Positions 3,459 through 43,529 of a stretch of 64,000 nucleotides of DNA are shown piece by piece; position 1 is the stretch's first letter, and every line of letters begins with the position of its first letter. Under the pieces are notes generated by a model. That model was not told the origin of the DNA. It saw nothing but the letters and a program-made list of their open reading frames with translations, and ran no database searches. This DNA comes from Cyanophora paradoxa CCMP329 (taxonomy: Eukaryota > Plantae > Glaucophyta): assembly GCA_004431415.1 (NCBI GenBank), contig QPMI01000161.1, positions 62,001-126,000 on the forward strand, given 5' to 3'. Both the position numbers and the translations under genes were made by a program.

Positions 3459-3554
3459 GCACCCCCCCGATGTCCTGACTGTTTTCAAGCGGCTCGCCAG
3501 TTGTACAGTTCAATTGCATTTCAGTACAAATCCGCTGCAGCGCCGGGCTCATGG

Positions 3555-16320: not shown

Positions 16321-16629
16321 CTAGAGCCGTGTCTTCTTTCTCTCTATGTGCGATGAGCGCGCTCATGGCAGCGCATGCACAACAGCGCCGGCAGCGCTAG
16401 CGCTAGAGCCGAAGCAAAGCACTGTTCGATGCGCACACGCGCATATGCGTGCACGCGTGCGGCGTGCGGCTGGCGCGTGTCGTTGCTAGCTAGCCGCAGC
16501 TGGCCATGGCGAGCGCGACCTCTCGCAACGGCAGGCCATAATTTTTCAGTGGGTGTACCCCCTTTGCGCCTCGCTCTACCCCCCACAGATAATAAGCCAG
16601 CTTCTCAGCTCGGCTTCCCAGCTCGTGCC

Positions 16630-20078: not shown

Positions 20079-20560
20079 GCGCCAGCCCGACGGCGCCAGC
20101 CCCGCCCGCGCCCCGCGCCCCGGTCCCGTGGAACTCTCTCCTCCTCCGCGACACCCCTTCCCCTCTGCTTCCGCCCGCCCCGCCGCCCCCGCGGCGGCGG
20201 TCGGGCTCGCGCCTCCCGCCGGCCCGCCGCCGGGGGTTTGCAGCAGAGCCGCCGCTCTCCTTCCTCCCCCTTCTCCGCCCGCGGCTCGTAAGCCACAAGG
20301 TTTCGCCACAAGCTCATTCGATTTCAATGCAGACGACTCTGTACCAGTACTTACTCGGGTGCCAATTTCAACAAATGCATTTGCAATTTGCCTTCGGGTC
20401 CGAGCATGCCGTGCCGTCGGCACGGGGTGGGCGGGCGGGCGGGTGCATGCGGTGCATGCACTATTGGGTGGGGCGCGGCCGCGCGTGATCAAATCGGTTT
20501 GGGCACACGTGCACGCAGGTACAGGGTCGAGGGCGGAAGCGGAAGCGGGGGGGCGGCGCC

Positions 20561-23510: not shown

Positions 23511-24099
23511 GGCTTAGAAATCGATGAAGAAGCGCCCCCGCTCGCGTACCCCCCTCCATGCCGCGCCGGCCCGCGCCGCGACGTTTCGATGCGCGCGCGC
23601 GCCGCGCCTCCAAGCCTTCTTCTCTTGCCCCAGCTGCCAGCTTGCTCTGCGTGGCGGCTGCGCACAGCCGATGAAGAAGGCGCTGCTGCAGCTGCTCGCG
23701 CCGCGCCCAGTCGATGCGCCCCGGCTGCAGGATGCTAGGGGCAAGGTGAAGCACGAGCGAAAGAAGAGCGGAGGATTCGAGAAGAATCCAAGCTTCAGAG
23801 AGCGTCCACCTCCGTCGCCAGTGCGCCCCGCCCGGGGCGCCCAAGCTCGCTCCCCTGAGGGGCTAGCCGGCTTTGTGGGCTTCTGATGCGCATGCAGAGA
23901 GAGGTGCTTGCGGGTGGTGCGGTGCAGGCTTGCCGTGACCTGGCGGCGGTCGCGGAGGCCGCGGCGAGGGCCGCCGCCAGCAGGAAGAGGGTCTGTCCAT
24001 CCGCTCTGCAGCCGCCGGGCCGTCCGTGCCGACCTTCTCCGCAGGAACGCGCCTCGTTGGAGCTCAGCCGCAGCGGTTCGGCTCTTGCTCACCGGCCAT

Positions 24100-25598
24100 G
24101 GGCACGGCTGAGATGCATGGGCCGCATGCGCGCAGGGGCCCTGGCCGTCCCTCCCGCCCGACCGGCCTCGTTCCCGGAGCCACGAACAGAGTACGACGAC
24201 GACGGCGGCGGTGCGTGCGCCGGGGCCGGGGCCGGCGGCCGCCCCCCGCCCCTTCCCTCCCAACCCAACGCCCGCCCGCGCAGTCTCGCGCCGGCCGCTC
24301 ATCCCGAAGGCTCCGTCGGCGTCGGCGTCGGGGTCGGCGGCGGGCCGCGGTCTGGTGAGGCCGACCCCGGCCTCGGGCGGGGACGCTCCGCCTCCGGCTC
24401 CCGAGCCGCCGGCCAGGCAGCCGCCCGCCCAGCCGCAGGCGCCTCCCCTGCCCCCTCGGCTCCACATCCCCCCGCCCCGCCCCCTCTCCCTCGCCGCCTG
24501 CTCCCCGCGCGGCGCCGGCGGCGGCGCCCTCCGACGCCCGAGCGGCGCTCTTCGACCAGATCCGCGGGGGCGCCTTCAAGCTCCGCCCCGCCGCCGCGCC
24601 CGTGGGGGCCGCGGCGTGCCTCTGAAAGCTTCGCCGCCGGCAGAAGAGGCGCCGGCTCCTCCGGCGCCCGCCCCAGCGGCGCGAGCCGCGGCCCCGCCCC
24701 CCGCCGGCTCGGATCCCCGCGCTGCCCTTTTCGACCAGCTCAAGGCGGGCGCGTTCCGCCTCCGGGCGGTCTCTCCCACACCGGCCCCCGCACCGGCCCC
24801 GCCCTCGCCGCCGGCGCCCCGCCAGCCCCCGCCAGCGAAAGCGCCCCCGCCCCTCTCCCCGCCGCTCCCGCTCCGCTCGGCCGCCGCCGACGCAGTACCC
24901 CCGGCGCCCACCGCGGCGAATCCGGCGCCAGCTGCGGCCGACGCGCGGGCCGTGCTCTTTGATCAGATTCGCGGCGGCGCATTTAAGCTCCGGCCGGCGT
25001 CTGCGCCTGCCTCGCGGCCCGCTGCTTCGGCCGCCCCGCGCCTCGCGGCGCCGCCCTCTCCGCTGCGATGCGCTCCCGTCTCTTCGACGCCCGCCGCACC
25101 CCCGCCCCCGCCCCGCGCCCGTCCCCTTCGGAAGGCCCCGGAGCCTCGGGGTAGGGCAGGGGCCGGCCCCCCGTGCCCCGCTTCCCCCGCGCGGCCCCCG
25201 CCCGTGCCCCGTGCGGCCTTCGCGCCGCTTCCCCCGCCGCCCCCCGCCGCCTCCGCCCCTCCCCTCCTCCGGCTAATGAGCCCGCTCCGCCCGTGCCCCC
25301 TCCAGCGCCCGCACCGCCCCGGGCCGCTCCCCGCGCGGCGCCGGCGGTGGCGCCCTCCGACGCCCGAGCGGCGCTCTTCGACCAGATCCGCGGGGGCGCC
25401 TTCAAGCTCCGCCCCGCCGCCGCGCCGGCCCCGACAAGCAGGCGTCCCGTGCCGGACGCGGCGGCGGCGCAGGCGGCGCCTCGGGCGCCGTCGCTGGCGG
25501 ACGTGATGCACGAGCGGATGCGGGAGGCGATGCGGCGGCGGCGGCAGCGCCTCTCCGACAGCACAGCTTCGAGCTCCGGGGCGTGGGAAAGCACGTAG
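24100..25598 (+). CDS. Proline-rich protein with four WH2 actin-binding repeats (WASP/WIP-like; start uncertain)
   Basis: Four copies of D(A/P)RA(A/V)LFDQ(I/L)(R/K)xGAF(K/R)LR near 24534, 24712, 24940 and 25359, with Pro-rich linkers. Confidence 0.75.
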
Positions 25599-25859
25599 CT
25601 GTAGCTGTAGCAAGAGTCGTGCATCAGGGCCTAACGGGGGCATCGGCGAGTGTAAATAGTCGTCTTCGTGTGGATGGGTGGATCATCGGATGTAACATCG
25701 AATCTTTCATCTTAACGCACTAGATCTCTGTCTCGATCTTAAGCTACATCTCTGTCGACCTCGAATCATGACGGACCGTCGGACGCTGAGCTGAGACTGC
25801 CAGGCTGTGTGCACGTGGAGGGCAGGGGCGGGGCGCAGGCGCGGGCAGGCGGCTAGTGC

Positions 25860-26356
25860 ACATGACATATGCGCATTACACCCAAATTTTAGCGCCTTTT
25901 ATTTACGACATTCAGTAACAACTTTACGATTCCCGACAATCGGAAAATATCACCACCCAATAAACCCATTTAATCGAGAGATTCCCGATGAAACCTACAA
26001 CAATCGAGAGATTCCCGACAATTCACCATCGGACAATCGATGAAATACCCATTTAATCGATTGAATCCATAAAAAACAAGCGCATTACACCCAAATTTTA
26101 GCGCCTTTTATTTACGACATTCAGTAACAACTTTACGATTCCCGACAATCGGAAAATATCACCACCCAATAAACCCATTTAATCGAGAGATTCCCGATGA
26201 AACCTACAACAATCGAGAGATTCCCGACAATTCACCATCGGACAATCGATGAAATACCCATTTAATCGATTGAATCCATAAAAAACAACAACCACTAAAC
26301 CATTCACAGTTACACCCGTTACACTTCCACATCTCCGATTGATTCACATTACACCC
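25860..26356 (+). repeat. Left terminal inverted repeat (497 bp) containing two tandem 209-bp units
   Basis: Starts ACATGACATATGCGCATT. Units at 25871-26079 and 26080-26288. Reverse complement of 37548-38044. Confidence 0.95.
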
Positions 26357-26357
26357 A

Positions 26358-26681
26358 TCACATTCGCATAAATTGCATCCAAGTAGCAGGATTAGCAATA
26401 CTTACGTCTGATTCGGAAGACATACCTTTTTGGTAATTATAACAGAATTCACAAAGTAGTCCCTGAGACATTGGTTTGAGTTTTTCAGTATCTCCACAAA
26501 TCATACAACAGTTTCGGGTTCCCATTCGTTCATACATAGCATTTGCTTTTGCCTGTTGTGAATGTGTTAATTTCAATTCGCCGACGTTTTCATTTACCAT
26601 AGAAACAACCGGACGTCCACTTTTAGCGCCGACGTATTCAGTCATATTACGATGTCGTTCACTTGCTTTTCTCTTACCCAT
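26358..26681 (-). CDS. PLV small zinc-ribbon protein (107 aa)
   Basis: CMIC...CEFC (CxxC...CxxC); basic N-terminus; upstream promoter-like motif on the minus strand. Confidence 0.6.
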   Translation of the reverse strand: MGKRKASERHRNMTEYVGAKSGRPVVSMVNENVGELKLTHSQQAKANAMYERMGTRNCCMICGDTEKLKPMSQGLLCEFCYNYQKGMSSESDVSIANPATWMQFMRM

Positions 26682-26716
26682 CGTTATTACTACTTCTCAG
26701 ATTCCTTTTAAACTTT

Positions 26717-26763
26717 GTCAAATTTTGCCCCGATGCAAAAAATGACGCTTTAAAACTTAAAAC
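26717..26763. promoter_or_regulatory. Putative bidirectional early promoter
   Basis: CAAAAAATGAC (+, 26736-26746) followed by ACTTAAAA, and CAAAATTTGAC on the minus strand (26717-26727), between divergent ORFs. Confidence 0.55.
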
Positions 26764-26787
26764 TTTACAACGATACACTTGTAATCA

Positions 26788-27300
26788 ATGGCGACCAAAC
26801 GAACCGCGGACATTCTGTGTTATAACATGGACTTCTTACCTAATTCAAATAGTGTTTACGCTGATTTTTTCGGAGATAATCTAACTGATGAATCTATTTC
26901 GATTATATTTGGTGTATACAAGTGTTTGCATCAATTCCAAGGTGTAACATCAGATATGCTACACAAATGCTTCCTTACCAATAGACTCGATGAATTGATT
27001 CATAAAAGAAATAAAAATAATCCATCGGGCTATTTCAAGAAGTTGAAAGAAAAAGGAATTATTATAGGAAAAACTTGTTTTTCAGAGCAGCAAGACATAC
27101 CTAAATTCGAAATACTTGATGACAGTTATTGTATTAATTGTGGGCATGCAGATTATCTAACAGAAAATCACCCACGATTCACAGCGCCACCTGATTGTTA
27201 TGTTTGTTGTGAATTTCTTTGTAAAAAGTGCGCATACTACGACAAACAAAAGTATTCATTCGTGCATTTCAAATGTAGCCCAAAAATGGGCAAAAAATGA
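26788..27300 (+). CDS. PLV Cys-rich zinc-finger protein (170 aa)
   Basis: CINC...CYVC-xxx-LCKKC...HFKC in the C-terminal third. Confidence 0.6.
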   Translation: MATKRTADILCYNMDFLPNSNSVYADFFGDNLTDESISIIFGVYKCLHQFQGVTSDMLHKCFLTNRLDELIHKRNKNNPSGYFKKLKEKGIIIGKTCFSEQQDIPKFEILDDSYCINCGHADYLTENHPRFTAPPDCYVCCEFLCKKCAYYDKQKYSFVHFKCSPKMGKK

Positions 27301-27328
27301 TGTCCCAAAAAAATAACAATTAAAAACA

Positions 27329-27742
27329 ATGGATTACTACGGAGTTTACATGTTGGATATTGAAAATCCGGAATTACATAAAGATCTTCTCGAAAACAAC
27401 GGGGCTGAATGGGATCCGGACACAAAATTATGGTTTGTCGAAGACGAAAATAACGAACTTTTAAAACAATTCCGTGTAAAACATCCGGGTGAATTCGACC
27501 AAGATTACGTTAAACAATTCCACCGCCAGTATTTCGTGGCTGATATCAAAGCAAGACTACCGGAGATTGCGGCAAAGCGTATATTTACTCAGTCATCATT
27601 ACGCAAATATATTAAAAAACAAGGCGCTACATACGATCCTCAGTATCGTTTATGGTATGTTACTGATCCTGAAAGTGAGATATGCAAGATCTTTAAGATG
27701 TTCACACTCGAACAGGTAGAAGATCTGAGAAGACCAAATTAA
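27329..27742 (+). CDS. PLV protein with two DUF5710-like repeats (137 aa)
   Basis: NGAEWDPDTKLWFV and QGATYDPQYRLWYV match the GA(R)WDxxxKxWYV pattern. Confidence 0.65.
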   Translation: MDYYGVYMLDIENPELHKDLLENNGAEWDPDTKLWFVEDENNELLKQFRVKHPGEFDQDYVKQFHRQYFVADIKARLPEIAAKRIFTQSSLRKYIKKQGATYDPQYRLWYVTDPESEICKIFKMFTLEQVEDLRRPN

Positions 27743-28491
27743 ACCGTAATCGTCGTGGGTTCATTACTAATTCTTATCGATTCTCTCTTTTTTATCGCTC
27801 GTCTCTTAACAAACTTGCGAAACGCTTTCATGTCATCATCTGTTATTATTGCACGGTCTGTGTATACTTTGATGTCATAACCTTGTAACCCAGTTATAAC
27901 GGTCTGATAATTGTAACCCCAAAGTCTATGTAGTTCTTTGTAAGTCTTCTTGTCCAATCCACCGTTATATTCATCGAATGCACAGTTAAACTCTTTCTCA
28001 TTTCCTAAAATGTTAAAGAATACCACAAATTCCACATTACGACGAATGGTAGTAGAAATAGAACATATACGTTGGACATTGAAAATAACGGTTATACCAT
28101 AATGTCTTCCGCTCGTTACCAGTTTGGATAACACAGCCGAATTATGCATATCCAAATTAGAACCTATCATGTCATCTAAAATTATTACCAAACTATTACG
28201 CTTCTCATTGTTTTCGATTCGTTTCTTTTGCATACTAATTAGTTTCACTACCACATTATCATCCCATTCCTCATAGATGTTACCAGGATGCGTTATATCT
28301 CTGAATTGCCCAGTAAACGCAGTGGAACTAAATATTACAATCTGATCGATCTTATCCCGCAGTTCATAGAGTAGATACTTACAATAAGTTGTCTTACCAG
28401 AGTTGGAGCGTCCGGCAAGCAAAAAACGCGAAGGGAGTTTAGCTGTCCTTGCAGGGTCGAATTCGGGAATATCATCAAGGTCGATCTCCAT
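27739..28491 (-). CDS. A32-like (FtsK/HerA) genome-packaging ATPase
   Basis: Walker A GRSNSGKT, Walker B VIILDD, arginine motif GRHYGIT-VIFNVQ and IRRN. Confidence 0.93.
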   Translation of the reverse strand: MEIDLDDIPEFDPARTAKLPSRFLLAGRSNSGKTTYCKYLLYELRDKIDQIVIFSSTAFTGQFRDITHPGNIYEEWDDNVVVKLISMQKKRIENNEKRNSLVIILDDMIGSNLDMHNSAVLSKLVTSGRHYGITVIFNVQRICSISTTIRRNVEFVVFFNILGNEKEFNCAFDEYNGGLDKKTYKELHRLWGYNYQTVITGLQGYDIKVYTDRAIITDDDMKAFRKFVKRRAIKKRESIRISNEPTTITV

Positions 28492-28590
28492 TACTACGTT
28501 GTCCGTTACAGTAATAAGATAAAAAACAAAAGCATGCGCTAACCTATACGCGATTCGCAGGCTTCCTACTTTAAAGAAAGAAAAGAACTT

Positions 28591-29817
28591 TTAAAAGTTG
28601 GAAACTTTCAGTGTCGAAATGTTATAGCCATTGAGAACCATGACATTGTGACGGAGCGCGAAAATGTCGACCTGAACCGGTGCAGCATCAGTGCAACCAG
28701 AAACGGTCAGATCCATATACGAACTCGAACTATTGAAGAAGTCCTGATAACCCATGACTGAATTATGGAGCGAATCCTTACCATTCTTGCTGAGAACAAC
28801 ACCATAGACACATCCACTCTCGAAACCAAAACCAGCATTGCCTACGGTTGCACCTTTGTAATGCGATGGGATATGGTTAGCAGCAGAAAGGAAACCAGAT
28901 ATGGGTTTATTAGAGATTTCAAGCGATCGGTTGTTGTGGAAAATTTGGAACTCATCGATTTTCACAGCAGATCCAACACCGTAGAAATCGGAATGAGTGT
29001 ATTTGTCCAGCTTGTTAACGTCACGAACAGTCATAAGGATTGAATGCACCAGACCGGAAACGTTAGCCAGTGTAACCTCGACCGCCTCGCCAGAATCGGC
29101 AGTTTTAAGTGATCGGGTCTTTTTGTGGATGACTTCCGTAATTGGAATGCGAATACCTCCCTGTTCATTCGCCATTTTAAGGAGAGTCTCAGCCTCCGCA
29201 GAAGCAATGTTAACGAATTGACAGATTAGCCCGCAATCACTCACGGTAACAGTTCCACCAGCAGGAACGTTAACTACCGCAGCCTCGCGAAAATCTACCT
29301 CGATGGTGGGCATATCCGCAAGAACGCAAAGGGGGAAATATGCATCGTCCCAGAAAGCAGCCGGAATTTTAACTACATATTCAGTCGACTTGTCGGTAGA
29401 TTCACGGGTAGCTTCCGCTCCGAGACCAAGGGACATATACATAGCGCTCAGTCCCGATACATCATTATCGATCAGAGTGTTTACAGTGATCCAATCGCCA
29501 GGGATGATATACTTGAACCCACCATGGACAAAACGAACCTCTTTAATGAAAGAAGAACCACCATTGGGAAGATCACAAGCAACACCACCACCGGTAGTAA
29601 CCTTAAAGTAAAGCGAAACGCCACTAAGCAGTTGCTTGCGTGGTAGATCAAAGTAAGCGGTCGTCTTAAACCCGAAAGTGTTACCGCGTGGGCGAACCTG
29701 TTCAAGGAACGGCTTATACTTGGGGTTGGTTCCAATTTGGAGACCGGGAGATAGGTAAATTTGATCCGATCCGGGAGTAACGAGGAGTTCTTTAAGGGTC
29801 GTTCCAGTAAGCGCCAT
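28591..29817 (-). CDS. Putative major capsid protein (double jelly-roll), 408 aa
   Basis: Size, beta-rich composition, YFDLP...LSGVSLYF and YFPLCVL-x-IEVDFR segments, and position between the packaging ATPase and the penton-like gene. Fold not verified. Confidence 0.75.
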   Translation of the reverse strand: MALTGTTLKELLVTPGSDQIYLSPGLQIGTNPKYKPFLEQVRPRGNTFGFKTTAYFDLPRKQLLSGVSLYFKVTTGGGVACDLPNGGSSFIKEVRFVHGGFKYIIPGDWITVNTLIDNDVSGLSAMYMSLGLGAEATRESTDKSTEYVVKIPAAFWDDAYFPLCVLADMPTIEVDFREAAVVNVPAGGTVTVSDCGLICQFVNIASAEAETLLKMANEQGGIRIPITEVIHKKTRSLKTADSGEAVEVTLANVSGLVHSILMTVRDVNKLDKYTHSDFYGVGSAVKIDEFQIFHNNRSLEISNKPISGFLSAANHIPSHYKGATVGNAGFGFESGCVYGVVLSKNGKDSLHNSVMGYQDFFNSSSSYMDLTVSGCTDAAPVQVDIFALRHNVMVLNGYNISTLKVSNF

Positions 29818-29869
29818 GTCTTATGTTTAAAATACGAAAAGAAATTTTTAAATTACATTATTAAACAGA

Positions 29870-30775
29870 ATGACGCGTTACTATCTTAATATTGATTCCC
29901 GGGATCGGGATGATGGAACCCCTACAAACTATTCTTATAAACTTCCCCATGCAATCCAAAATGTTAAAGCATGCCGTGTTACCAATTTCGAAATGTTTAA
30001 TAACATTTACAATCTCAGCGAAAACGGAGCGCTTGTAACATCCACACGCGATGGACAAGGAGTAACCAAAACGAAAAACAACGTGATTTCGAAAGGGACT
30101 TACACAGCGGATAGTTTGGTGAATTATCTAAATGCTCTTCTGATATCTCAGGTCTACGGTGCAGCAGGGACTACATACACCCGTCATTTCAATGTGTCTT
30201 ATGATCCAATAACAATGAAACTAAGGATTATTGGTGAAGTAGCATTTACCATACGTTTCGGTAGCATGATTTTAGCCAATTTCCTCGGTTTCCCGGATCC
30301 ATCACTAAATGGCTCGGCGGGTGTAGGTTATCCATCTACTCCTCTCGATTCACCACAGCAAGTAGGTGCTTATACTTATAATCACTATCTCGACAGTGTC
30401 ATACCGCTCGACCTTCTGTTTAATTCTTACATCCTTCTACATGTCGATCCACTCAAAGGTAATTACGTAAGCAAGAATACCAGCGACGATAAAGCGTTAG
30501 CTAAAATTGAAATTGACCAGACGGTAGGTAGTCTCCTAAAATACGATTCTACCAATAACTCTATGATCATCCATGAGCAAAACGGATTAGTGGAAGTTGA
30601 GACGCTTAAAGTGCGTTTGACGTATTGGAATGGTAACGAAACGGACATTACCACGGATTGGTCAATGACTCTCGAACTGATCACCGAAGATGAAAAGGAT
30701 CTTACGAAAGCAGCATTGAAAAACGTTATAAGGGATTTGGAAAATGTCTATTTACCGTTTGGTCGTAATATGTAA
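29870..30775 (+). CDS. Putative minor capsid (penton, single jelly-roll) protein, 301 aa
   Basis: N-terminal LNIDSRDRD...YSYKLP...NV...NNIYN, G(T)YT, LGF and C-terminal LKVRL...DWSMTLEL, typical of PLV/NCLDV penton-like proteins. Confidence 0.8.
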   Translation: MTRYYLNIDSRDRDDGTPTNYSYKLPHAIQNVKACRVTNFEMFNNIYNLSENGALVTSTRDGQGVTKTKNNVISKGTYTADSLVNYLNALLISQVYGAAGTTYTRHFNVSYDPITMKLRIIGEVAFTIRFGSMILANFLGFPDPSLNGSAGVGYPSTPLDSPQQVGAYTYNHYLDSVIPLDLLFNSYILLHVDPLKGNYVSKNTSDDKALAKIEIDQTVGSLLKYDSTNNSMIIHEQNGLVEVETLKVRLTYWNGNETDITTDWSMTLELITEDEKDLTKAALKNVIRDLENVYLPFGRNM

Positions 30776-30807
30776 TTTTGCGTTATATTTTTGTCTTGTT
30801 ATTTCAA

Positions 30808-31584
30808 ATGGCTCGTAAGACACAACCGAAGAGCGGCTCGCAAGCGAGCCTTGGCTCGCGCCTTTTCTTAGCGAAACCCGTCGAACAAGCGGAACCGGAA
30901 CGGAAGCATTACAAGAAATCGAAAGGAACCGCAGCATACGGAACCGCTGATATCGAAAAGAATATTAATAATACGATTAATTCCAGTGCTGTGGCGCCAG
31001 TAGACGACATTAACGATGGTAACGCCTTAGTTGAGCAAGTGCCGCTAAACCGTATGCCGGGTGCAAAGCGTGGGATTAAGAAAGGACAATTTAAGAGCGC
31101 GACAATCGATAAGGTCGATAAAAAGTCGACTCTTCTTAAACTCCTCGATGGTGGCGAGCGTCTGTATTCCACATATTCGGAAAAAGACCACCGTAACCGT
31201 TACTTTATCAGAGCAACTACCGGTGGACTGAAAACGATCACATACAAACACGCTAAAAGTCTCATTGAGGGAATCGCCGATGAGACGCAGAAAGAGAAGA
31301 AGATAACGGAGCAACCGATAACCAAAGAGAAGGTAGACAAGAAACCCGATGTTACGTTTGATGTCCTTCCCGATCCAATCAAAGAGGAGAAACACACACC
31401 GACGGAATTAATCGCTAAGACGATCGATTACCAAGAATCCAATAAAACGGATTTGCCGGTGTTAAATAAATCAATCTTGCGGGTTGCTACATCGCAATCT
31501 GACCCGCTTAACTCCATTCCCAATGCGGCGCCCATGCTTTCCGGATTCGCTAAATTGGGTCTCCGTCCCGGTTACAGGCGTTAA
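30808..31584 (+). CDS. PLV Lys-rich hypothetical protein (candidate virion core protein)
   Basis: ATG at 30808 (MARKTQPK...), Lys-rich, directly downstream of the penton-like gene. Confidence 0.6.
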   Translation: MARKTQPKSGSQASLGSRLFLAKPVEQAEPERKHYKKSKGTAAYGTADIEKNINNTINSSAVAPVDDINDGNALVEQVPLNRMPGAKRGIKKGQFKSATIDKVDKKSTLLKLLDGGERLYSTYSEKDHRNRYFIRATTGGLKTITYKHAKSLIEGIADETQKEKKITEQPITKEKVDKKPDVTFDVLPDPIKEEKHTPTELIAKTIDYQESNKTDLPVLNKSILRVATSQSDPLNSIPNAAPMLSGFAKLGLRPGYRR

Positions 31585-31807
31585 GCATCATTCTTACTTT
31601 AAAATTTTCTTTTCAAAGAATAGCGTTAAACATCCATCTCCGAATTTTAGCGCTCACGTTTACTTATTTTTATAAGTGGCGTTGTAGAGAAGTTGTGATA
31701 TCCATGTATCACGCTTTTTAATCACCTGTTCTACGGGGTTCAATCGTAGAATCGAGGAAGCGAAGCCTTTCGACTTATTTTTCCGGCATCTTCTTATTAT
31801 CGATGCG

Positions 31808-31890
31808 CAAAAAATGACAGCGTTTTAAAAAACTGATCGACATGTTATATACACGATAAGAAAAGGACTTAAAGATTTCTTGCTATATAT
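31808..31890 (+). promoter_or_regulatory. Putative early promoter
   Basis: CAAAAAATGAC (31808-31818), ACTTAAAGA (31867-31875) and TATATAT upstream of ATG 31912. Confidence 0.55.
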
Positions 31891-31911
31891 CAGAAGAGGA
31901 ACAGCAAGAGA

Positions 31912-32166
31912 ATGCCGCTAAGCGAATCTCAGAAACGCGCGATTTATCGCTACCGCAGCACAGAAAAGGGTATGTTAGCGCTTGCGCGATTCAATGAAAA
32001 GCGCAATGTTAAGTGGAGTGAATTGTATAATAACGATGACGCATTTAGACAGAAACACATAGCAACGTCATGCAAGGCGCAGTATGTAAATAACACGATT
32101 CTATACATTAAGTATCTATTCGACGTCCCGCGAACTAATCGTGGTCGCCCATCAATTCATTGTTAA
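31912..32166 (+). CDS. PLV small basic helical protein (84 aa), possible DNA-binding
   Basis: MPLSESQKRAIYRYR N-terminus, terminal RGRP, preceded by the shared motif. Confidence 0.55.
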   Translation: MPLSESQKRAIYRYRSTEKGMLALARFNEKRNVKWSELYNNDDAFRQKHIATSCKAQYVNNTILYIKYLFDVPRTNRGRPSIHC

Positions 32167-32336
32167 TCCTTTTTTCCCGGCGCGATCGCTGAGGAAGACA
32201 GGCGCAACCGCGCTTAAAACAATACACTGTTTGAGTTATTTTTAAGACCATCGAATGGTGGTCGACCCTTTTGTTATTTTTATTAAACCCTCAAAGTCGC
32301 ATGCACTAATCGATTTTGCGGATTTTGCGGTGGCGC

Positions 32337-32392
32337 CAAAAAATGACGCAATGTATGAAAAGCACTTAAAGAAATAAAATATAGTGTATATA
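32337..32392 (+). promoter_or_regulatory. Putative early promoter
   Basis: CAAAAAATGAC (32337-32347), ACTTAAAGA (32364-32372) and TATATA upstream of ATG 32410. Confidence 0.55.
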
Positions 32393-32409
32393 ATAAGAAC
32401 GCCTATAAG

Positions 32410-35400
32410 ATGTTTTCATTTGCAACAGTGAAGAATATCATCGGATCTGTGGTAGAGTCCATTAGCAATCTACCCGGTATTCGCAGCATCCCGTTTATCG
32501 GTAATGCAATTAAGCGAATCGCTAATGATCGTTTCGAAAGAGTCGTAAAGGAACTCGAAGCAAGGAAGAGTGAGAAGAAGGAGAAGACTAAGGAGGAAAT
32601 CCGCGAAGAGCGGAAGAAGCGCAAGCAGGAGAAGAAGGAGAAGCGCGCACTGAGAACGATTAAGAACATTCAGAAGCAAGAAGGGAAGAAGTTCAAGGGA
32701 AAGGTAAGGCGTCTCATTCGTCGTATTGAAGCAGAAAATGGCGAAACTGTTTCGGTTCATGTAAGATTCTATACACTTCCCGATGATATCGATAATCTAC
32801 CACAGGGCTATGATGTTATCTTACACAAAGACACGCCTTACGTTGAGACACAGAAGAGCGGAAAGAGGGCATTAATTATGACTTGCCCGAAAGACGTATT
32901 GATTGCAAGACTTACCGAAGTCGAAGACGAATTTAATAACTTTCTTGCCGTTTGGTCGCTCGATACTATCGCCGCTTTCCTTCTTAATATCGCTGATCGT
33001 AACGCAAATAACAGGGATTACAATTATGTGCGAATTTTCGCTTACCCACAACTCCGTGAGTCTCCTATTTCATATCCCGATGTTATGACAATTGAGGAAA
33101 TTGTAGTAAGTGACAATACCACTGTATACCCTCTGAATGAAAGAGCGCTTAGAGACGGAGAGGCGCCTAAGATCGTTTCGCGTTTCATCAAATATTCACT
33201 TAATGGTGGCGCAAAATCTGTATTGGATCAGATTAAACCCGATGGGTCACTTATCATCAAGGATTGCTTAATAGAGGCGCTACATCAGGTCATTGTGAAA
33301 TCTTTCGAATATGCCCACAGTATCAGCAAATACAAGAAGGTTAAGTATTCGAAGGAATGGCTTTATGAGCAGATCAAAGGACACGCGCCTACTGACACAT
33401 CCGATTGGGGGACGTCCTTTAACGAAATACTACCATTCTTGCAAAAGTGGCGCATCCGCTTTATCGCAATCGGAAAAGACGACAAGGTTATACATTCTCT
33501 GTGTTACAAACCTACCCGGACAAATTCACACCTTGTCCCGGCAAGCGTTTACGTTCAGATCTCTAACGATCACGTGTATGTGTTGAATAAAGACCTTAGT
33601 AAACTTGTGCGATCTTTCAATGGAACAGCGGCGCGCGAAACAAAAGCGGTGGGTTCATCGTCGTTAAAATACAAGATCAAAACACAGTTTAACGATATCA
33701 GCTATCCGGCATACTCTGAGGAAGAAATAGTGGAGATTGTTAAACGTGAGAAGGAAAACGCAACCTCAAAAATCACGATCACTTACAGTAAACCGTTATT
33801 CGAATTGTTGGGAAGTTTCAGAAGAGCAAACCACGAAGTTAACGCGACTATTTCCGATGAAGGTATAGTTAGCTACATCCATTACAAGATCGAAGACAAA
33901 GATGTAGTTATACTACCGCCAGGCAATATGGTGAATATGGATGATGTCGACGTTAACCTTAGGGATGAAGAACACCGAAAACTCTTTAACGAAATGTCGC
34001 AGATGCTAAACCGTGCGCTCATTAACAAACATGTTAAGAGCAAATACAACCCGGAGACATTCGCCGCATTCACGAAAGGACAACAGAGCGCATTAAATGG
34101 GTTTTTCGTGACTTCTAACGCTGAATTGCGGGAATTGTTTGAAGGTGTTATGTGTGGCGCGATCGATACGTATAAATTGGATATCTCCAAAGCATACACA
34201 CATATTGTATCGAAACTCATCAAAAACTTCCCGGTTTTCAGCTCATTCGATCGATTCGAAAAGGTTGTGGTAACGTGTAGCGATGATATCGAAGCGGACG
34301 CCTTCTATTCAGTGAAAGTAAGAGCGAAACACTTTACGGTAAATCGTAAAGACCAATTGATTAACAACATGTCGCCATACAAACGTATCCTTGTAGACTC
34401 AAAATACAACCTTCTGTATGGTGGCGTGTTGAAAGAGTTCTACGATGACATCCGCGACGACGTGATTATAGAAGCAGTGGTAAGACCATACCGGGTTGTT
34501 AAAAACGTCACATTGCAGGCTTTCAAGCAGTTGTTTGCGTCTAACCTTTCGATCAAGGAAAAGAAGGATATCAGTAATCACAATATCGGGAAGTTTGGTA
34601 AGAAATCCCAGCAAAAAGTGCAAACAACGATATTCTTTAACAAGAACGACGCGCTTAACTTTGTCCGAGAGAACGGCGGTAAACTGAGATCGCTAAATTT
34701 CGATTCAAAGAAGCCGAAGCGGACGACTGTAAGGAATGAGGCAAAGACGGAGACACCGATGTTATGGTATGTAAACCAGCTCGGAGAAGAGAAGACGCTT
34801 ATAGATGGTTTCCTACCTATCCAGTGTCAGATTTACAGTATCATGCGTGGGGTCATGTATAAACTGTCTAAGGATCTATTGGCTAATGGTGTTGGAGTTC
34901 TACGCATCAGAACCGATGAGTTTCTTATAGACAAGCCATACCCATTTGAGCCGTTTGACCGCGACCTTTTCGAAAACACCGGAAAGTATGACGTGAAACC
35001 GTTTAATGTTACTCCGATTATATCACAGGAGTCAAAGAAGAAGCGGAATAATGCTAATGGGTGGATCACATTCGACAGACTGAGACAACGCGACGAGAGG
35101 TTTATTACGGTCGAGAAGGTGAATCATAAGGTGTTCAAGTTTAAGGATGAATACAACGTGGAAGCCATCGTGAATGCTATGGACGGAAAGGGTAACGTGA
35201 TTATTCGCGGTGTCAAACCCGGGACAGGTAAGACCACGTTAGCGAAGGCGATGACACGGAAGTATGGTAAAAACTGTCTTTTCATTGCGCCGACTAACAT
35301 TCGATGCAAGCAGCTACGCATGGAATTGAAAAAGGAGTGGAGCGAAGTTGACATGGTCGATGTGAAGACTATCTACAAGTCACTACATCTGAATATCGAC

Positions 35401-36494
35401 CCCGAGAAGATGAATGACAACGTAGGTAAACAGGTTACCGATTTATCCAAGTATCAATGCTTTGTAATCGATGAGGTTTACCAGTTCCAGATTCGCGAAT
35501 TGGAGGCGTTGAGAGACATTATGACTATCCATTTTCCGGATAAGTTATACATCGTTACGGGTGACCCATTCCAGATTCCACCGATTCAATTTATCGATAT
35601 CGACCATCGCGACTACTACAACAAGATCTTTGACCGGTTGTTTAAGAATGAGGTTTACCTACAAGTCGGAAAGCGACACAAAGACCCCGAAGATCAGGTT
35701 AAAATAGATCAATTGAAACATGATCTATTCGTTACAAAAATGCGTGTTCCGGAGGCAGCGGCGCGGTTGGGTCTTGCAGTTGTGAATGAAATGGAAAAAG
35801 GCGACATTTCCATAGTTCAATCTAACCGCAAGTCCGCGCAAGTGAATAATGAAATGCACAGGATGCTTTACGGTGTTGACATGGTTTATAAGGAAGGCGT
35901 GCATTTGATTGCAAAGTATCAAATCACAACAAATGAGGGTATCATTTATCGCGGATTTGAATATGAAGTACCGAAAAGGTTCTTACGCTAAAAGACATCG
36001 ACAGCGAAGAAATCTATAATGCGAAGCCCGAAGACATCAAATATTTCGCATTATCGCATGGTTTCACTTGTTACAGCATTCAAGGTGACACTATCAGAGA
36101 TAAGCGGGTAGTTGTGTATCAGATGACCTCGCCATACATGACCGCTGAGAGTTTCTATGTTGCAGTTACGCGAACCGAAAGACTTTCTGACACTGTTATT
36201 TTCGTAGATGAGGACGAAAGACGGAGAGTGGGTATGGAGAAGGCAGAGTTTGCCGTTAAAATCAGATCACACAAGGCAGAAGACAAGAAGTGTAACCGTG
36301 AGTTTGACGCAGCAGATTACGTCGATTGGGAATGGAAGGGTTACCGCTTTGGTAAGCAGCATGGACGCTGTGGAAGGTGTGGCGATATTATGGATCCGGA
36401 AGATGCAACAGTAGACCGTTACAACAACGCAATCGCCCACATTAAGCCGAACTGTTTCTTATCTCATAATAGGTGTAATTGTGCAGCGCAGTAA
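32410..36494 (+). CDS. Replication fusion protein: vOTU-like + derived protein-primed PolB + SF1 helicase + HNH-like nuclease; frame break near 35970-35990
   Basis: DCLIEAL/NDHVY. PolB-like LDISKAY, KDISNHNIGK and IRTDE. SF1 GVKPGTGKT, IDEVYQ and GDPFQIPP. The -1 frame continues with HGFTCYSIQGDT and FYVAVTR (motifs V/VI), then CGRC...TVDRYNN..H..NC..HNRCN. Confidence 0.85.
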
Positions 36495-37456
36495 TGGATA
36501 ACATATTATCTTACAAGAAATACCGCCAGAAGTTGATAAACGATAAAGTGACATTTGATGAAGCAGAATTAAAGAAACGTTTTATAAATTCCGAAGTGCA
36601 TCAGATATTCAAGAAACCAAAGAAACCAAAGACATTTCTAAGAATTGTTGCTATGCCTTATTCCTTTCAGGTGGACATAATGAATTTTAAAGGATATCAA
36701 ACCGCGAATAATGGGATTTACAAGATGATAAGTTTTATTGATATATTGAGTCGGAAGGCTTTTGTGTATCCGTTTAAGAAAAATGAAGAAATCCGTAATA
36801 TTTTGAATAAGTTTAAGGTTGAGGCAGGTAAGGTTAATGGATTGGCGGGAGATCATGAGTTTAGCAGTGCGATGTATAAAGAATGGTGTGATGCTAACGG
36901 TGTGAGATTATATACAGATGTGGCGAAAGATGACCATGTAACCGTTGGAAATAAGTTAGGAATTATTGACAGATTCACACGGACATTTAAGCAATATTTG
37001 AGGAAGGCGATGACATCAAAGGGAACCACAAAATGGATAGATTTAATAGGTGAAGTTCTTTCGATTTACAATGGTTCACCTCATAGTTCCTTAAAAGATG
37101 ATTCACCCAATGCAGTATTTGCAAGTGATCAGAAACAGCTTTTTATACATCTACGTGATGTTGTGCATAACAAGCATGTGCAAGAGAAGGAAAAGAAGGA
37201 TACAGTAAAACCGGGTGATACTGTGCGAGTGTTGGAAGGTAAAAAAAGTGCGTTTGAGAAAGAAGGCGCGCGATTCAGTCAGAAGGTCTATAAAGTCGGA
37301 AGATCTGACGGGAATAGGTTTAAGGTGTTGGAGGATATGGACGGAGACGAGAAGGAGGTAAAGAGGCGCTTTAAGAAGCAAGAGTTACAGAAGGTGAGCG
37401 TGAAAGATGTAATTAAGATACCGTCGCAAAAACGAATAGAACGAGTAAAAAGGTAA
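36494..37456 (+). CDS. Retroviral-like (rve) integrase
   Basis: SFQVD, IDILSRKAFVYP, GDHEF, KLGIIDRFTRTFK, YNGSPHSSL and SH3-like KPGDTVRV...FEK...FSQKVYKV. ATG at 36494. Confidence 0.92.
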   Translation: MDNILSYKKYRQKLINDKVTFDEAELKKRFINSEVHQIFKKPKKPKTFLRIVAMPYSFQVDIMNFKGYQTANNGIYKMISFIDILSRKAFVYPFKKNEEIRNILNKFKVEAGKVNGLAGDHEFSSAMYKEWCDANGVRLYTDVAKDDHVTVGNKLGIIDRFTRTFKQYLRKAMTSKGTTKWIDLIGEVLSIYNGSPHSSLKDDSPNAVFASDQKQLFIHLRDVVHNKHVQEKEKKDTVKPGDTVRVLEGKKSAFEKEGARFSQKVYKVGRSDGNRFKVLEDMDGDEKEVKRRFKKQELQKVSVKDVIKIPSQKRIERVKR

Positions 37457-37547
37457 ATGCTGTGAATCAGAAGATGAAGAAGGAAGGGATTAAACCGAAT
37501 CGAAAAGTAACCGTGAGGAAGAAGTATAATTTAAGAAGTAGTGCAAA

Positions 37548-38044
37548 GGGTGTAATGTGAATCAATCGGAGATGTGGAAGTGTAACGGGTGTAACTGTGA
37601 ATGGTTTAGTGGTTGTTGTTTTTTATGGATTCAATCGATTAAATGGGTATTTCATCGATTGTCCGATGGTGAATTGTCGGGAATCTCTCGATTGTTGTAG
37701 GTTTCATCGGGAATCTCTCGATTAAATGGGTTTATTGGGTGGTGATATTTTCCGATTGTCGGGAATCGTAAAGTTGTTACTGAATGTCGTAAATAAAAGG
37801 CGCTAAAATTTGGGTGTAATGCGCTTGTTTTTTATGGATTCAATCGATTAAATGGGTATTTCATCGATTGTCCGATGGTGAATTGTCGGGAATCTCTCGA
37901 TTGTTGTAGGTTTCATCGGGAATCTCTCGATTAAATGGGTTTATTGGGTGGTGATATTTTCCGATTGTCGGGAATCGTAAAGTTGTTACTGAATGTCGTA
38001 AATAAAAGGCGCTAAAATTTGGGTGTAATGCGCATATGTCATGT
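37548..38044 (-). repeat. Right terminal inverted repeat (497 bp)
   Basis: Ends ...AATGCGCATATGTCATGT; reverse complement of 25860-26356 with no mismatch seen by eye. Confidence 0.95.
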
Positions 38045-40473
38045 AGTGCTCGGTCCAGGCGAGGGCGTCGAGGGCGAGCTCGAGGGCGGGGGCCTCGAGC
38101 GGGGCCTGCCAGGCCGCCCCGCAGGCCTCCTCGAGCTCGAGCGCCTCGAAGGGCGCAGAGCCGTGCGCCAAGTCGAGCCCCGCCGCCTCGAGCTCCCCCT
38201 CGGGCCCCCCCCACGTGTACGCTTCGAACGCCTCCCCGGCCTGATCAGCATCCCACGCGCCCCGTGAGCGGCGGGGGCGTCGGCGCGGGGTGGCGCAGGA
38301 GAGGGCGCACATCGGGCGCGGCGTCGGGCGCGTCGACGTCGGAGGAGGCGGCCGCCTCGTCGAGCTGGAGGCCCTTCAGGAGGCGCCCGCAGGCGCCGGC
38401 CCCGTACGCGCTCGCGAACATCTTGCTCCCCATGTCGCAGTTGTACGCCCGCAGGTTGTGCAGGTCCTGCGACCGCCCCGCCCCGCGCGCACCCGAACGT
38501 CGGCCGCAAGGCGAGAGGGGCACATGGGGAGGGGGGCGAGGTGGGCGAGAGCTCGAGGGGTAGGCATCGCCCACCCTCTCTCTCAGCTCCTAGCGGCGTC
38601 CCCGCCCCCTCTCACCTTGGCGTCGCCGTTGAGGACGAGGCCGGTCCTCAGGGCGCCCTTCCGCGCCCCGCTCTTGTCGTAGAAGCCCTCCCCTGAACCC
38701 CGGAGGTCAGAGCTCCCGGAGCGTAGGCTCGGGGTGCAGGTAGGTGGCTGACCGCGCTTGAGGACGGGGCAGCGGGAGGCCGGGGCGTCCCTGGGGCAGA
38801 GGATGGGCACGTCGCGTCCCACGTGCACGAGGGGCACGCCTGTGTGCGCCGCGTCGCCGTCGCCAGTCGTGAGGACGACGGTGCTCCCACCGACCTGCGC
38901 GGTGCTAAGGAGGGGCGGATGGGAGGAGCAGAGGGCGGAGGTGCGGATGCGGCGGACCCAGTCCGGGAAGGTGCCGTCCTTGGAGTAGTGGAGGACGCGG
39001 TCGAACGAGACGCGGTCCCTGCGCGCGCAATCTCCCTCAGAGGGAAGCCGATGCAAGCGGGGAAGGTCGAAGTGCCGGGGCCGGCAGGCAGGACAGGGAA
39101 GGGCGGGGCTGAGCGTGGCGCACCCGGCGGCGCTGGTGAGGTCGGCGAAGAAGCGCGCGAAGGCGGCGTCGCCGGCGGCCCACTGCCCGAACGTGACCGC
39201 CTTCAGGCCCTTCAGGTTGGGCAGCGAGGCCCGCCTCGCCCCGCCCTCGCCCCGCGCGTCGGAGCCGACGTCGCCCCCCGGCCCCTCGTGGAGCCTGCGG
39301 GCCTCCTGTGAGAGGGGCGGGGAGGGGGCGGCTGGCGATGGGAGAGGGGATCCGGAGGGTGCGGGGGCGCCTGGAGCGGAGGAGGGCCTCGACGAAGGCG
39401 AACTGGGCCATGGCGCCCCCCAGCGAGTGGCCCGTCACCGCCAGCTCCCAGCCCCCGGCCCCGGCGCACGCCGCGTCCACCGCCTCCAGCGCCCCCATCA
39501 CCTGGCCCTCGTACGCGCTCCTGAAGCTGGGGGGGGGGGGGGGGGAATGAGGGGGGATACAGTTACAGCTTGAAGGGACGCTTTCGGCGCACTGGTTCTG
39601 AAGGCCGCCGTGGAGGGTGCCGTAGCAGCCCTCGCCGAGGGCGCAGGGCGCCGGCGTGACGTCCGTGTTCGCCTCGAGCTCCCCCGGGCCGTTCGGCACC
39701 GTACCCCGGAAGGCCAGCACGAGCTTGCACTCCCTCGTTCCGTCGAGCTTGAACAGGGCGGCCCCGGTGGGGCCCTGGCCGTTCGAGAACGCGAACCCTG
39801 GCGCCACCTGCGGGGGCGGCCGGGGTCAGGGCCTCCAAACCGAAATCATAGCTAGCCGTACGCGTAGGAATCGTAGATCAATGTAGCTACAGCTATAGCT
39901 GAATTTGAACTGTCCACCAAAAGCCTAGAGAAATTGCTACATGGAAGCTCTTGAGTTTTAGACCTCGATCGGGCCTGGGGCGCACCGGGAGGTGGAAGAG
40001 CTTGAGGATGGTGTAGCGCTCGTCGCCGAGGCGCAGGGCGCGGGAGAGGTCCAGCCCCGAGGCCGCCTCCACGGCCTCCGCCGGCCCCGCCCCCGTCGCC
40101 ATCGCGTACTCCGCCCGGAAGATCCCGTACCTGCGCGGGGAGGGGTACAATGCACGCTCGATCGCGACGGCACCGGATCGGAAGTGGACTGGAGCCGGAT
40201 CCGGAGCGCACGCTGCCTCGCTGAACACCCCCATCTTTTCTATGAACTCCTTCTCCGCCGGGGCTGCCGGCGTGGTTGGCGTTGGAAGGGGCAGGGGCGG
40301 AAGGCGGGGCGCGCGGGGCGGGGTAGAAGCTCACTCAGGTCAACGGGAGCAACGGGAGTTCCACCGTCGGCGAGGGACTTCGGGGGTATCCAGTTCTAGG
40401 GGGGTACGCGTGAGGTAGGGGTACGGTTAGAGTACGCGGGCCGGCTCACCCCCACGAGCCTGGGCGCGTTCAT
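37986..40473 (-). CDS. Class 3 lipase (multi-exon); native stop codon interrupted by the PLV
   Basis: LVLAFRGT, LHGG, AVTGHSLGGAMA (GxSxG), VTFGQ and HNLRAY. The last exon ...LAWTEH runs into the right TIR. Confidence 0.85.
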
Positions 40474-41526: not shown

Positions 41527-43032
41527 CTAGGGCTGGGCGGGGGGCGCCGGGGAGGGGGCGCGGGGGCCCTGGGCGCGGTCGCCGCCGAAGCCGAAGAAGA
41601 GGCGGGGCGGGGCGGAGGAGGCGTCGGCGTGGAGCGAGTTCCACTCCCGCAGCTGCCGCACGGGGAGCGAGTTCTCGACCACCGAGGGCCGCACCAGGGC
41701 CCGCGCCCGGGCGAAGTCCTCCGCCGTCACGGCCCGCATCGCGTCGGCCTCGTAGGGGGCGGCGGCCCCCGAGGCGAGCAGCTCGCGCACGGGCTCGTAC
41801 GCGGCCGCGATGCAGAGGTTCTTGAGGTCGGAGCCGGTATAGCCCTCGGTCGAGCGGGCGAGGGCCGGGACGTCGAAGCCGGGGGCGAGCGACTCGTCGC
41901 GGAGGAGGAGGGAGAGGATGGAGAGGCGCGCGTCGTAGTCGGGGACGTCGATGAGGACGCGCTTGGGCAGGCGCCGCAGCACGGCGTCGTCGAGGTCGAA
42001 GGGCCGGTTGGTGGCGGCGAGCACGACGACGCGCTCGCCCTCGGTCGAGCTGAAGCCGTCCCAGGCCGCCATCAGCTCGTTCTGGAGGCGGCGGCTGGCG
42101 TCGTGGTCCGCGGTGTGGCGCCGGCCCAGCAGCGAGTCGACCTCGTCGAAGAAGAGGACGCAGGGCTGCAGCTTGCGCGCCAGGCTGAAGATGGCGGCGC
42201 CGAACTTCTCGCTCTCGCCGAACCACTTGGAGGTGAGGCTCGAGGAGGAGACGTTGAGGAAGCAGGCGCCCGACTCCCGCGCGAGGGCCTTGGCCAGCAG
42301 CGACTTGCCCGTGCCCGGGGGCCCGAAGAGGAGGACGCCGCGGGTGGTCCGCCTGAGGTTGCCCCGCGCGAAGAGCTTCGGGTGCCGCAGCGGCAGGATC
42401 ACGATCTCGTGCAGGGCCGCCTTGGCCGCCTCCAGCCCCCCGATGTCCTCGAACCGCACCCCGCTGCGCGAGCCGTCGCCTCGGAGCAGGATACGGTAAC
42501 GCAAGGGGAGGCGCGGGGGGGGGGGGGGGGGGGGGGGGGGCCGAACGCGCACATGTCCTCGGGGCGGACGACGGAGGGGAGCAGCTGCTTCTCGGAGCTG
42601 TCCAAATGCGGGAGCACGCTCCGCAGCCTGCCGGATTTCAGGGAGGTCAAGGGGGTAGGGGGGTACGGGGGTAGAGGGGCCGCTGACCGCTCGTCGGAGG
42701 GGGCGCCGCTGCCGGGGCCGAGCTGGGGCGGGGCGGGGGCCATCGGGTGTCGGCCGCCGGAGAGGCCGAGGACGCGCTGGCCCAGCTCCCGCGCCCAGGC
42801 CGGCATCGGGGGGCCCTCCGGCCCCACGTCCGGCCTCCGCCCGCGTCCCACGAGCTCCTGCACGGCCGCCGTCGGTCAGGGGCGGCGAGGGCCGAGGCGC
42901 CGGAAAACGAAGGAAAGGAGGCGAGGAGGAGAAAGGGGCGGGGGCGGGATGTGTGTGGCCGGCTGAAATGGCCGACGGGCCAGAGGGAGGGGCCCGGCGG
43001 TAAAGTGAGGCGGCGTCTCTCTGGGACTCCAA
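41527..43032 (-). CDS. Msp1/ATAD1-like (meiotic clade) AAA+ ATPase
   Basis: VRFEDIGGL, ILPLRHPKLF, GPPGTGKS, TSKWFGESEK, FFDEVD, WDG, ATNRPFDLDDAVLRRLP, GYTGSDL. Confidence 0.9.
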   Translation of the reverse strand: MESQRDAASLYRRAPPSGPSAISAGHTHPAPAPFSSSPPFLRFPAPRPSPPLTDGGRAGARGTRAEAGRGAGGPPDAGLGAGAGPARPRPLRRPTPDGPRPAPARPRQRRPLRRAVSGPSTPVPPYPLDLPEIRQAAERAPAFGQLREAAAPLRRPPRGHVRVRPPPPPPPPPRLPLRYRILLRGDGSRSGVRFEDIGGLEAAKAALHEIVILPLRHPKLFARGNLRRTTRGVLLFGPPGTGKSLLAKALARESGACFLNVSSSSLTSKWFGESEKFGAAIFSLARKLQPCVLFFDEVDSLLGRRHTADHDASRRLQNELMAAWDGFSSTEGERVVVLAATNRPFDLDDAVLRRLPKRVLIDVPDYDARLSILSLLLRDESLAPGFDVPALARSTEGYTGSDLKNLCIAAAYEPVRELLASGAAAPYEADAMRAVTAEDFARARALVRPSVVENSLPVRQLREWNSLHADASSAPPRLFFGFGGDRAQGPRAPSPAPPAQP

Positions 43033-43529
43033 CTGAACCGGAGGCGCACAGCGCTGGCGCGCGGCCCGTCGCCGACGGGCAGTGTTGGCGTCCCGCCGCG
43101 GGAGCTAGGAGGGGGCGGCGAGGGGCGGCGAGGGGTGGGGAGTGTCGCCGAAGCGTATGACCGGCGGGCACGGGATCGGCCCAACGGTAAAGTGAGTTCG
43201 GCTGGTCTTCTCCCGCGCCTTTTGACCCGAACGGCGACCGAAGACGCGCCGAGCGGGCTTCGAAACGCGGGATGAAATAGGGAGCTGGGGGCTAGAGGAG
43301 GGAGCTAGCGGTGGTGTGTAGCGGAGCTGTATAACCGACGCCCCTCGAGGCGGGCGGCGGGCAAGTTAGTCCGCGTGGCTCTGGAATACACTTTGACCCG
43401 TGCCGCGCACCCCGGGGCGAGCCCCGGTAGCGGACAGGCTTCGAAGTATTCCGTCCCGTCCCAAAGAAACGAAAGGCGAAAGAAGAAAGCGGAAAAGGCG
43501 AAGCACATGGAAGAACGAACGAACCGTGA

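Follow-up and report, generated by a model that had tools for sequence, protein, structure and literature searches.

A Tlr1-type Polinton-like virus with a frameshifted helicase, likely recently integrated at the predicted stop codon of a lipase gene in a glaucophyte nuclear genome

Structure and gene content of the element

We analysed a 64,000-nucleotide (nt) stretch of contig QPMI01000161.1 (positions 62,001 to 126,000; hereafter the window, whose coordinates are used throughout), which holds an AT-rich element of 12,185 bp (25860-38044; 40.9% GC versus 71.0% across the remaining window). The element is bounded by terminal inverted repeats (TIRs) and a target-site duplication (TSD), between which lie open reading frames (ORFs) for capsid proteins, a packaging ATPase, a replicase and an integrase. 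With a probability of about 0.88, we read it as an endogenous Polinton-like virus (PLV) of the Tlr1 type that was likely integrated recently, by an rve-type integrase, into a glaucophyte nuclear genome, that is one of a few near-identical copies and that carries a frameshifted helicase. The ends and principal genes are as follows (aa, amino acids; vOTU, a protein domain; pPolB, DNA polymerase of family B that is primed by a protein; SF1, superfamily 1).

25855-25859, plus strand: left TSD copy, AGTGC, 5 bp
25860-26356, plus strand: left TIR, 497 nt, with two exact 209-nt tandem units at 25871-26079 and 26080-26288
27739-28491, minus strand: A32-like genome-packaging ATPase, 250 aa (Pfam Pox_A32, E 3.3e-14)
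28591-29817, minus strand: double jelly-roll (DJR) major capsid protein (MCP), 408 aa, from Atlas, predicted fold and Foldseek
29870-30775, plus strand: likely single jelly-roll penton (minor capsid protein, mCP), 301 aa, of which about aa 41-185 form an insert
32410-35991, plus strand: Tlr1-like replicase, first 1193 aa, comprising N-terminal domains, a vOTU-like domain, a pPolB palm and SF1 helicase motifs I-IV, with a stop after the frame change
35967-36494, plus strand: remainder of the replicase in the -1 frame, holding a likely HNH nuclease besides helicase motifs V and VI
36494-37456, plus strand: rve-type integrase, 320 aa as assembled, with acidic residues D61, D120 and D159
37548-38044, minus strand: right TIR, 497 nt, likewise with two 209-nt units
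38045-38049, plus strand: right TSD copy, AGTGC; read on the minus strand, it contains the final His codon of a host lipase together with base 1 of its predicted stop

A first-pass annotation, made from the letters alone, had described an AT-rich island of about 12.2 kb in GC-rich host DNA, with 497-bp TIRs lacking any mismatch, a perfect 5-bp TSD and a PLV-type module (DJR MCP, penton, A32 ATPase and no protease) alongside an rve integrase. The ORFs were found at the coordinates that it gave, the TIR pair has 0 mismatches in 497 nt, AGTGC stands on both sides, and the module is supported, weakly and by sequence in the case of the penton. The 209-nt tandem units within the TIRs are an addition to that description; a 239-nt contig (26050-26288) fits their seam in three of four putative RNA runs (see below). 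The termini (25860-25870 and 38034-38044) start with ACATGACATA, a short direct repeat that resembles what we take to be the ends serving slide-back priming in protein-primed genomes.

Capsid and packaging proteins

Structure prediction confirmed a double jelly-roll capsid fold for the 408-aa protein, the outcome on which the first-pass assignment had been made to depend. The protein is placed in the Atlas with the Capsid_N and Capsid_NCLDV clusters (0.98; NCLDV, nucleocytoplasmic large DNA virus). An exhaustive search returned five remote homologues at 23-30% identity, one of them a Cyanophora paradoxa EukProt protein, and the model built on the alignment of these five (pLDDT 62, pTM 0.66; a single-sequence model reached a pLDDT of only 28) matches PBCV-1 Vp54 in Foldseek with E 4.4e-14 and a TM of 0.59. 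Vp54, iridovirus and EhV capsids head the ranking of folds, Sputnik and Mavirus follow lower (E 1e-10 to 1e-9), and BFVD agrees. A word-based protein search with the MCP gave no homologue among 6,353 candidates, viral contigs scanned with the MCP, ATPase, integrase or helicase yielded no relative, and none of the 133 pattern matches in a metagenome scan with the ATPase was a relative.

The 301-aa protein is likely the penton. Its sole PDB match at E<=10 is a weak one to 6ncl_a6, PBCV-1 P1 (E 0.037, in two collinear blocks), and P1 is presumably itself a penton. No maturation protease was found as a family match in Pfam, NCBIfam or PHROGs among the 11 ORFs, of which five are small and have no assigned function.

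A Tlr1-like replicase broken by a frameshift

Residues 240-900 of the replicase are placed in the Atlas with the DNA_pol_B_2 (protein-primed PolB) clusters (0.93), and residues 919-1060 match SF1 helicases (AAA_19, E 1e-6; AAA_30, E 3e-6; PDB 5ftf/5fhd, E 8e-4). The motif labels follow in part PMC11161782. By eye, palm motif A lies at 591 (DISKAY), B at 719 (K..SN..IGKFG) and C at 834, where RTDE is read instead of DTD, with the first Asp replaced. Before the palm, Cys286 and His388 stand in a motif-like context, also judged by eye, with no vOTU profile or fold match; about 200 aa separate this vOTU-like domain from the palm, and between aa 390 and 590 there is one DxE, not Exo-like by eye, and no clear Exo I motif. 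The -1-frame tail has a CxxC and an HNH-like motif by eye, with no match in Pfam, NCBIfam or PHROGs and no clear PDB match. A word-based search with aa 270-900 gave no homologue among 7,985 candidates, and an alignment search matched one of 7,993, which was itself one of the search's own rows.

The long frame stops at 35989-35991 and the -1 frame is open from 35967 to 36494, so that the two overlap by 25 nt. Motifs IV and V of the helicase core are parted by the break, and the first ATG of the -1 frame (36123) comes after motif V. Sequencing data bear on it: 20 of the 24 listed runs, all from one organism, contain the element or part of it; contigs of four runs (X1, X5, X7 and X10) were compared with the window, and four runs, X16 to X18 among them, are guessed to be RNA. 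Exact ungapped contigs cross the frameshift in X5 (35510-36103, depth 13.4 versus 3-5 for the host) and X16 (35837-36047), and therefore the frameshift is not merely a long-read slip. We reject splicing as an explanation of the frame change if X16 is RNA, the X16 contig being unspliced across the site; of the 25 GT-AG intron candidates that can be drawn there, none has the GTGCGC donor seen in the intron predicted for the lipase.

It is unlikely that the present copy is in truth intact and that the frameshift comes from a sister copy or from a false polishing consensus. Artefactual frameshifts and the polishing problem have been described for such elements (Bellas 2023, PMC10120064), and the additional A that three putative RNA runs have near 37446 suggests that window and reads differ by one indel or more; against this, the exact contigs of X5 and X16 span the site, and no indel falls there among the 12 of 50 indel rows listed. 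Somewhat less likely still is a programmed -1 shift at about 35967-35991, yielding a short polymerase and a long polymerase-helicase-HNH form and leaving the copy fully autonomous. This would suit the recurrence of the frameshifted form in two short-read runs, the depth of the element-specific part at about three times that of the host, the open state of all other ORFs and the overlap of the frames. However, no canonical slippery heptamer (X XXY YYZ) occurs in the 12 in-frame positions, the downstream fold is weak (-12 to -17 kcal/mol, with no shuffle control), the break falls within the helicase core, and our literature search gave no match for ribosomal frameshifting in Polinton-like or Tlr1 elements. 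Fragmented helicase-polB genes in the PLVs of Oxyrrhis are, moreover, reported as decay in PMC12721341.

We thus read the frameshift as a lesion, common to at least the commonest near-identical copy. It removes helicase motifs V-VI and the HNH-like tail, which likely leaves this copy unable to unwind its own DNA and would make it dependent on a sister. Differences between the window and contigs of the near-identical sister copy cluster in the replicase gene at 32113-32759, 33747-33774 and 34780-34796, which points to at least two versions of the replicase.

Integrase, insertion site and age

Three weak matches agree on the integrase: Pfam rve (E 0.058), PDB 2x6n (E 0.038, aa 62-217) and a PHROG transposase (E 0.0044). 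RecA matches to its tail were rejected as summed repeats in fused chains. One base of the gene is possibly missing from an A-run near 37447, through a window error or a difference between copies; contigs of the putative RNA runs X16, X17 and X18 have one extra A behind 37446, and the neighbouring frame at the integrase end runs on into the TIR for about 35 open codons.

The insertion separates the first base from the other two in the TAG predicted as the stop of a host gene:

38045-38240, minus strand: predicted last exon of a host class-3 lipase (Lipase_3, E 1.5e-05, with a GHSLG motif upstream)

Removal of the element and one TSD in silico puts the TAG back in the frame of this predicted exon, which follows an intron predicted by eye at 38310-38241. 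As it stands, the lipase frame enters the right TIR for 19 codons and stops at 37986-37988, so that the lipase is predicted to gain 19 residues and to have its 3' untranslated region displaced by 12 kb.

In the junction contigs, taken from the longest pieces listed, an exact host contig (25397-25889) enters the left TIR by 30 nt in at least two of the four compared runs (X7 and X10), and an exact contig leads from 30 nt within the right TIR out to the host in at least three (X1, X7 and X10); one of these runs may be the source of the window itself. The 30 nt are one base below the 31-nt bridging rule and are expected of a 31-mer graph that meets a repeat. Host contigs unbroken at the TSD suggest that there is no common empty allele. 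A contaminant virus misjoined to host DNA in assembly could account for the sharp GC contrast and for junction contigs that reach only 30 nt into the TIR, yet we find this hardly credible: the TSD stands on both sides, exact host-to-TIR contigs occur at both sides in separate runs, and an assembly chimera, the other outcome that would have counted against the first-pass reading, is disfavoured because a chimeric join would not restore the lipase TAG.

That the integration is recent, as first proposed, is supported by the identity of the TIRs, for which 0 differences in 497 nt put the divergence below about 0.6% (rule of three). CpG in the element is at 1.34 times its expectation, that is, not depleted.

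Relation to known elements

The element has the DJR MCP, the A32/FtsK ATPase, the TIRs and the 5-bp TSD of a PLV, with no maturation protease found; TIRs and, with rve, a TSD of 5-6 bp are the expected PLV pattern according to PMC12220804. Palm motifs A and B with an altered motif C, and an SF1 helicase C-terminal to the palm (here split by the frameshift), are those of Tlr1-like elements. A canonical Polinton or a virophage would also explain the rve integrase, the TIRs, the TSD and the pPolB-derived domain, which are common to Polintons and Mavirus, and would fit the Sputnik and Mavirus MCPs among the fold matches. We nevertheless hold that identity to be very improbable. Although an rve integrase is present (weak matches and the TSD), as in the Polintons and Mavericks of the Polintoviricetes, which share the DJR MCP, penton, ATPase and pPolB-derived replicase as well, no Ulp1/adenain protease was found in Pfam, NCBIfam or PHROGs, and the polymerase is fused to an SF1 helicase, apparently without an exonuclease. 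Set against the virophages (Maveriviricetes), NCLDV-type MCPs rank above those of Sputnik and Mavirus, and again no protease was found among the 11 ORFs. The element might still lead a virophage-like way of life.

Tlr1 of Tetrahymena has the same gene set, given in PMC5499653 as MCP, mCP, ATPase, RVE and SF1 helicase with no protease, and likewise a single large gene with a pPolB palm and an SF1 helicase, to which the present element adds a putative vOTU domain and a putative C-terminal nuclease, as in Tlr1-like genes. The Tlr1-like helicase is described in PMC11161782 as a vOTU domain, an exonuclease-less pPolB palm with altered motif C, an SF1 helicase and a GIY-YIG or HNH tail, and its polymerase is predicted there to be active. 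The replication fusion noted at first is thus present, and is one that these two sources had already described. Tlr1 differs in ending in GIY-YIG (PMC12721341), where the present element likely has HNH; the latter also has another host, a highly diverged MCP, a smaller genome and a frameshifted helicase. OmPLV of the dinoflagellate Oxyrrhis marina (PMC12721341), endogenous too, likewise joins pPolB and an SF1 helicase in one fusion, which frameshifts often disrupt, but as described there its helicase is N-terminal to a full pPolB, it has a tyrosine recombinase and no recognisable mCP, and it measures about 25 kb.

PLVs of C. paradoxa have been catalogued before. The tally of MCP genes in this alga by Bellas et al. 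2023 (PMC10120064) stands at 366, and Polinton-like proteins in it are also noted in PMC8502044. Table S2 of PMC10120064 lists the HHpred-annotated capsid protein gene_49165, about 85% identical to the present MCP (45 differences in the first 299 residues, counted by eye), and a second listed MCP, P0002, is 24% identical by BLASTP. For 156 glaucophyte elements, Table S6 of PMC12220804 gives A32 in 139, rve in 85, PIF1-type helicase in 34, HNH_3 in 40, protease and tyrosine recombinase in 0, and various replicases. What these catalogues give is counts and MCP examples; we met no account there of this copy, of where it inserted or of its frameshift, and the present copy may be among those catalogued. 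In a literature search of mainly open-access coverage, judged by listings, we found no study devoted to glaucophyte PLVs or their particles. Two early suggestions must be narrowed. The lineage, called little characterised, is known from these counts and is thinly studied beyond them. The size of 12.2 kb is below the usual 14-40 kb (PMC10120064), but cryptophyte elements listed in PMC12220804 are about 10-12 kb by their coordinates. The early suggestion of a glaucophyte host is supported by the match of about 85% to the C. paradoxa MCP, and the host is likely C. paradoxa.

The element itself is ordinary, since endogenous PLVs are common in protists and those of C. paradoxa had been counted before, and it does not represent a new lineage; what is new is the frameshift, the insertion at the lipase stop, the shared upstream motif described below and the hint of highly expressed sisters. 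It is also a clean example, compact and with exact ends, of an insertion predicted to alter the C terminus of a host protein.

Sister copies and putative RNA

Sister copies are known through contigs only. Element-specific contigs stand at about 2.7-4 times host depth (170 versus 34-51 in X1, 292 versus 71-111 in X7, 244 versus 79-102 in X10 and 12 versus 3-5 in X5), a rough ratio and not a copy number, from which we tentatively suppose that a small number of close, near-identical copies exist in a larger family. Over the ATPase-MCP-penton region the summed depth is several times higher again, through the pile-up of many diverged contigs, so that the capsid module, but not this replicase, is common to numerous sisters; this agrees with the variety of replicases in Table S6 of PMC12220804. 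Loose contig ends at 29461 encode a peptide that, read by eye, resembles a published MCP variant.

In three of the four putative RNA runs, short ATPase contigs that differ from the window (for example, at 8 of 118 nt) reach depths of 2,000-7,800; a contig on the penton start in X18 has a depth of 8,554, and in two runs the bins that cover the MCP have mean depths of 300-1,000. Contigs that match the present copy exactly or nearly so have depths of only 4-19. Contig depth cannot rank genes, and parts of the element that are uncovered are no sign of silence. In X16-X18, the places with contigs of diverged sisters at depths in the thousands are 27935-28089, 28896-29769, 29839-29898 and 31861-31900. 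The high-depth contigs possibly represent a highly transcribed PLV in the same culture; this putative RNA of sister capsid genes is a more useful lead than the element itself and, if it is what it seems, a long-cultured alga would permit a direct test of whether a PLV replicates alone or with a giant-virus helper.

Several points weigh against the interpretation given at the outset. The integrase and penton are assigned from sub-threshold matches and motifs, and the vOTU, HNH and terminal-protein domains from sequence rather than fold models. The apparent youth could partly reflect homogenisation of the TIRs or polishing, and GC bias would inflate the depth ratios. Since variants are merged in contigs, an intact replicase in a sister may escape notice; the capsid module has several sites at which the contigs compared from all four runs differ from the window, and some bases there may be a polishing mosaic. 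The glaucophyte host rests on viral genes and genome traits.

Proposed life cycle

By analogy with Tlr1-like PLVs, the linear genome would undergo excision and protein-primed copying that starts at the TIRs, cleavage by the vOTU domain would release the priming domain, and the helicase would separate the strands in front of a polymerase without exonuclease. Shells of MCP and penton would be filled by the ATPase without a maturation protease, and the integrase would reinsert copies through a 5-bp staggered cut. The present copy, being helicase-defective, would rely on a sister element for its multiplication. The first-pass description of it as near-intact applies to the structural genes, which are open, but not to the replicase, with its -1 frameshift, nor perhaps to the integrase; this copy might, as first suggested, form virions.

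More speculatively, and with the odds well against it, the family could be active in culture, with sisters that strongly transcribe ATPase, MCP and penton without a known helper giant virus, form particles and mobilize helicase-defective copies that still land in host genes. If true, glaucophytes would have their first active virus system, and the helper question could be studied in a ready laboratory model.

Small genes, upstream motif and host flanks

The remaining features within the element are the following.

26358-26681, minus strand: ORF of 107 aa with two CxxC pairs, possible zinc finger; no Pfam or PHROG match
26736-26746, plus strand: candidate promoter motif CAAAAAATGAC, with further copies at 31808 and 32337 and one at 27291 with one mismatch
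26788-27300, plus strand: ORF of 170 aa with a Cys-rich C terminus, possible zinc finger (FYVE_2, E 0.068, below the cut-off)
27329-27742, plus strand: ORF of 137 aa with two DUF5710 repeats (Pfam DUF5710, E 8.8e-09, two stretches)
30808-31584, plus strand: Lys-rich ORF of 258 aa adjoining the penton; no family match in Pfam, NCBIfam or PHROGs
31912-32166, plus strand: basic ORF of 84 aa, with sub-threshold matches only

From its position and composition, the 258-aa protein may be a virion core or DNA-binding protein. Contig joints (25922-26266, 26358-26677 and 26749-27740) point to sister elements whose TIRs are shorter and which lack the three small ORFs of the left end, so that this end is a variable accessory region. 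Each copy of CAAAAAATGAC lies upstream of a plus-strand non-capsid ORF (four ORFs), and we regard the motif as a candidate early promoter element. It has five matches in the window, four of them inside the element, versus 0.25 expected, and none of 100 shuffles reached five; the motif was chosen by eye before counting, and the shuffles blend host and element composition.

A tRNA search of the window found none. The flanks carry intron-split eukaryotic genes (Clp chaperone, AAA ATPase, lipase and FAD oxidoreductase), and 10 of 52 flank ORFs have Pfam matches, among them these:

16357-20485, plus strand: host Clp chaperone (Pfam)
41527-43104, minus strand: host AAA ATPase (Pfam)
48369-49993, plus strand: host AAA_12 helicase-like gene (Pfam)
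60812-62520, plus strand: host FAD oxidoreductase (Pfam)

A Pro/Ala-rich host gene (24050-25601, plus strand) ends about 260 nt to the left of the element, convergent with the lipase, and contains repeated ALFDQIRGGAFKLR motifs that we take to be WH2-like.

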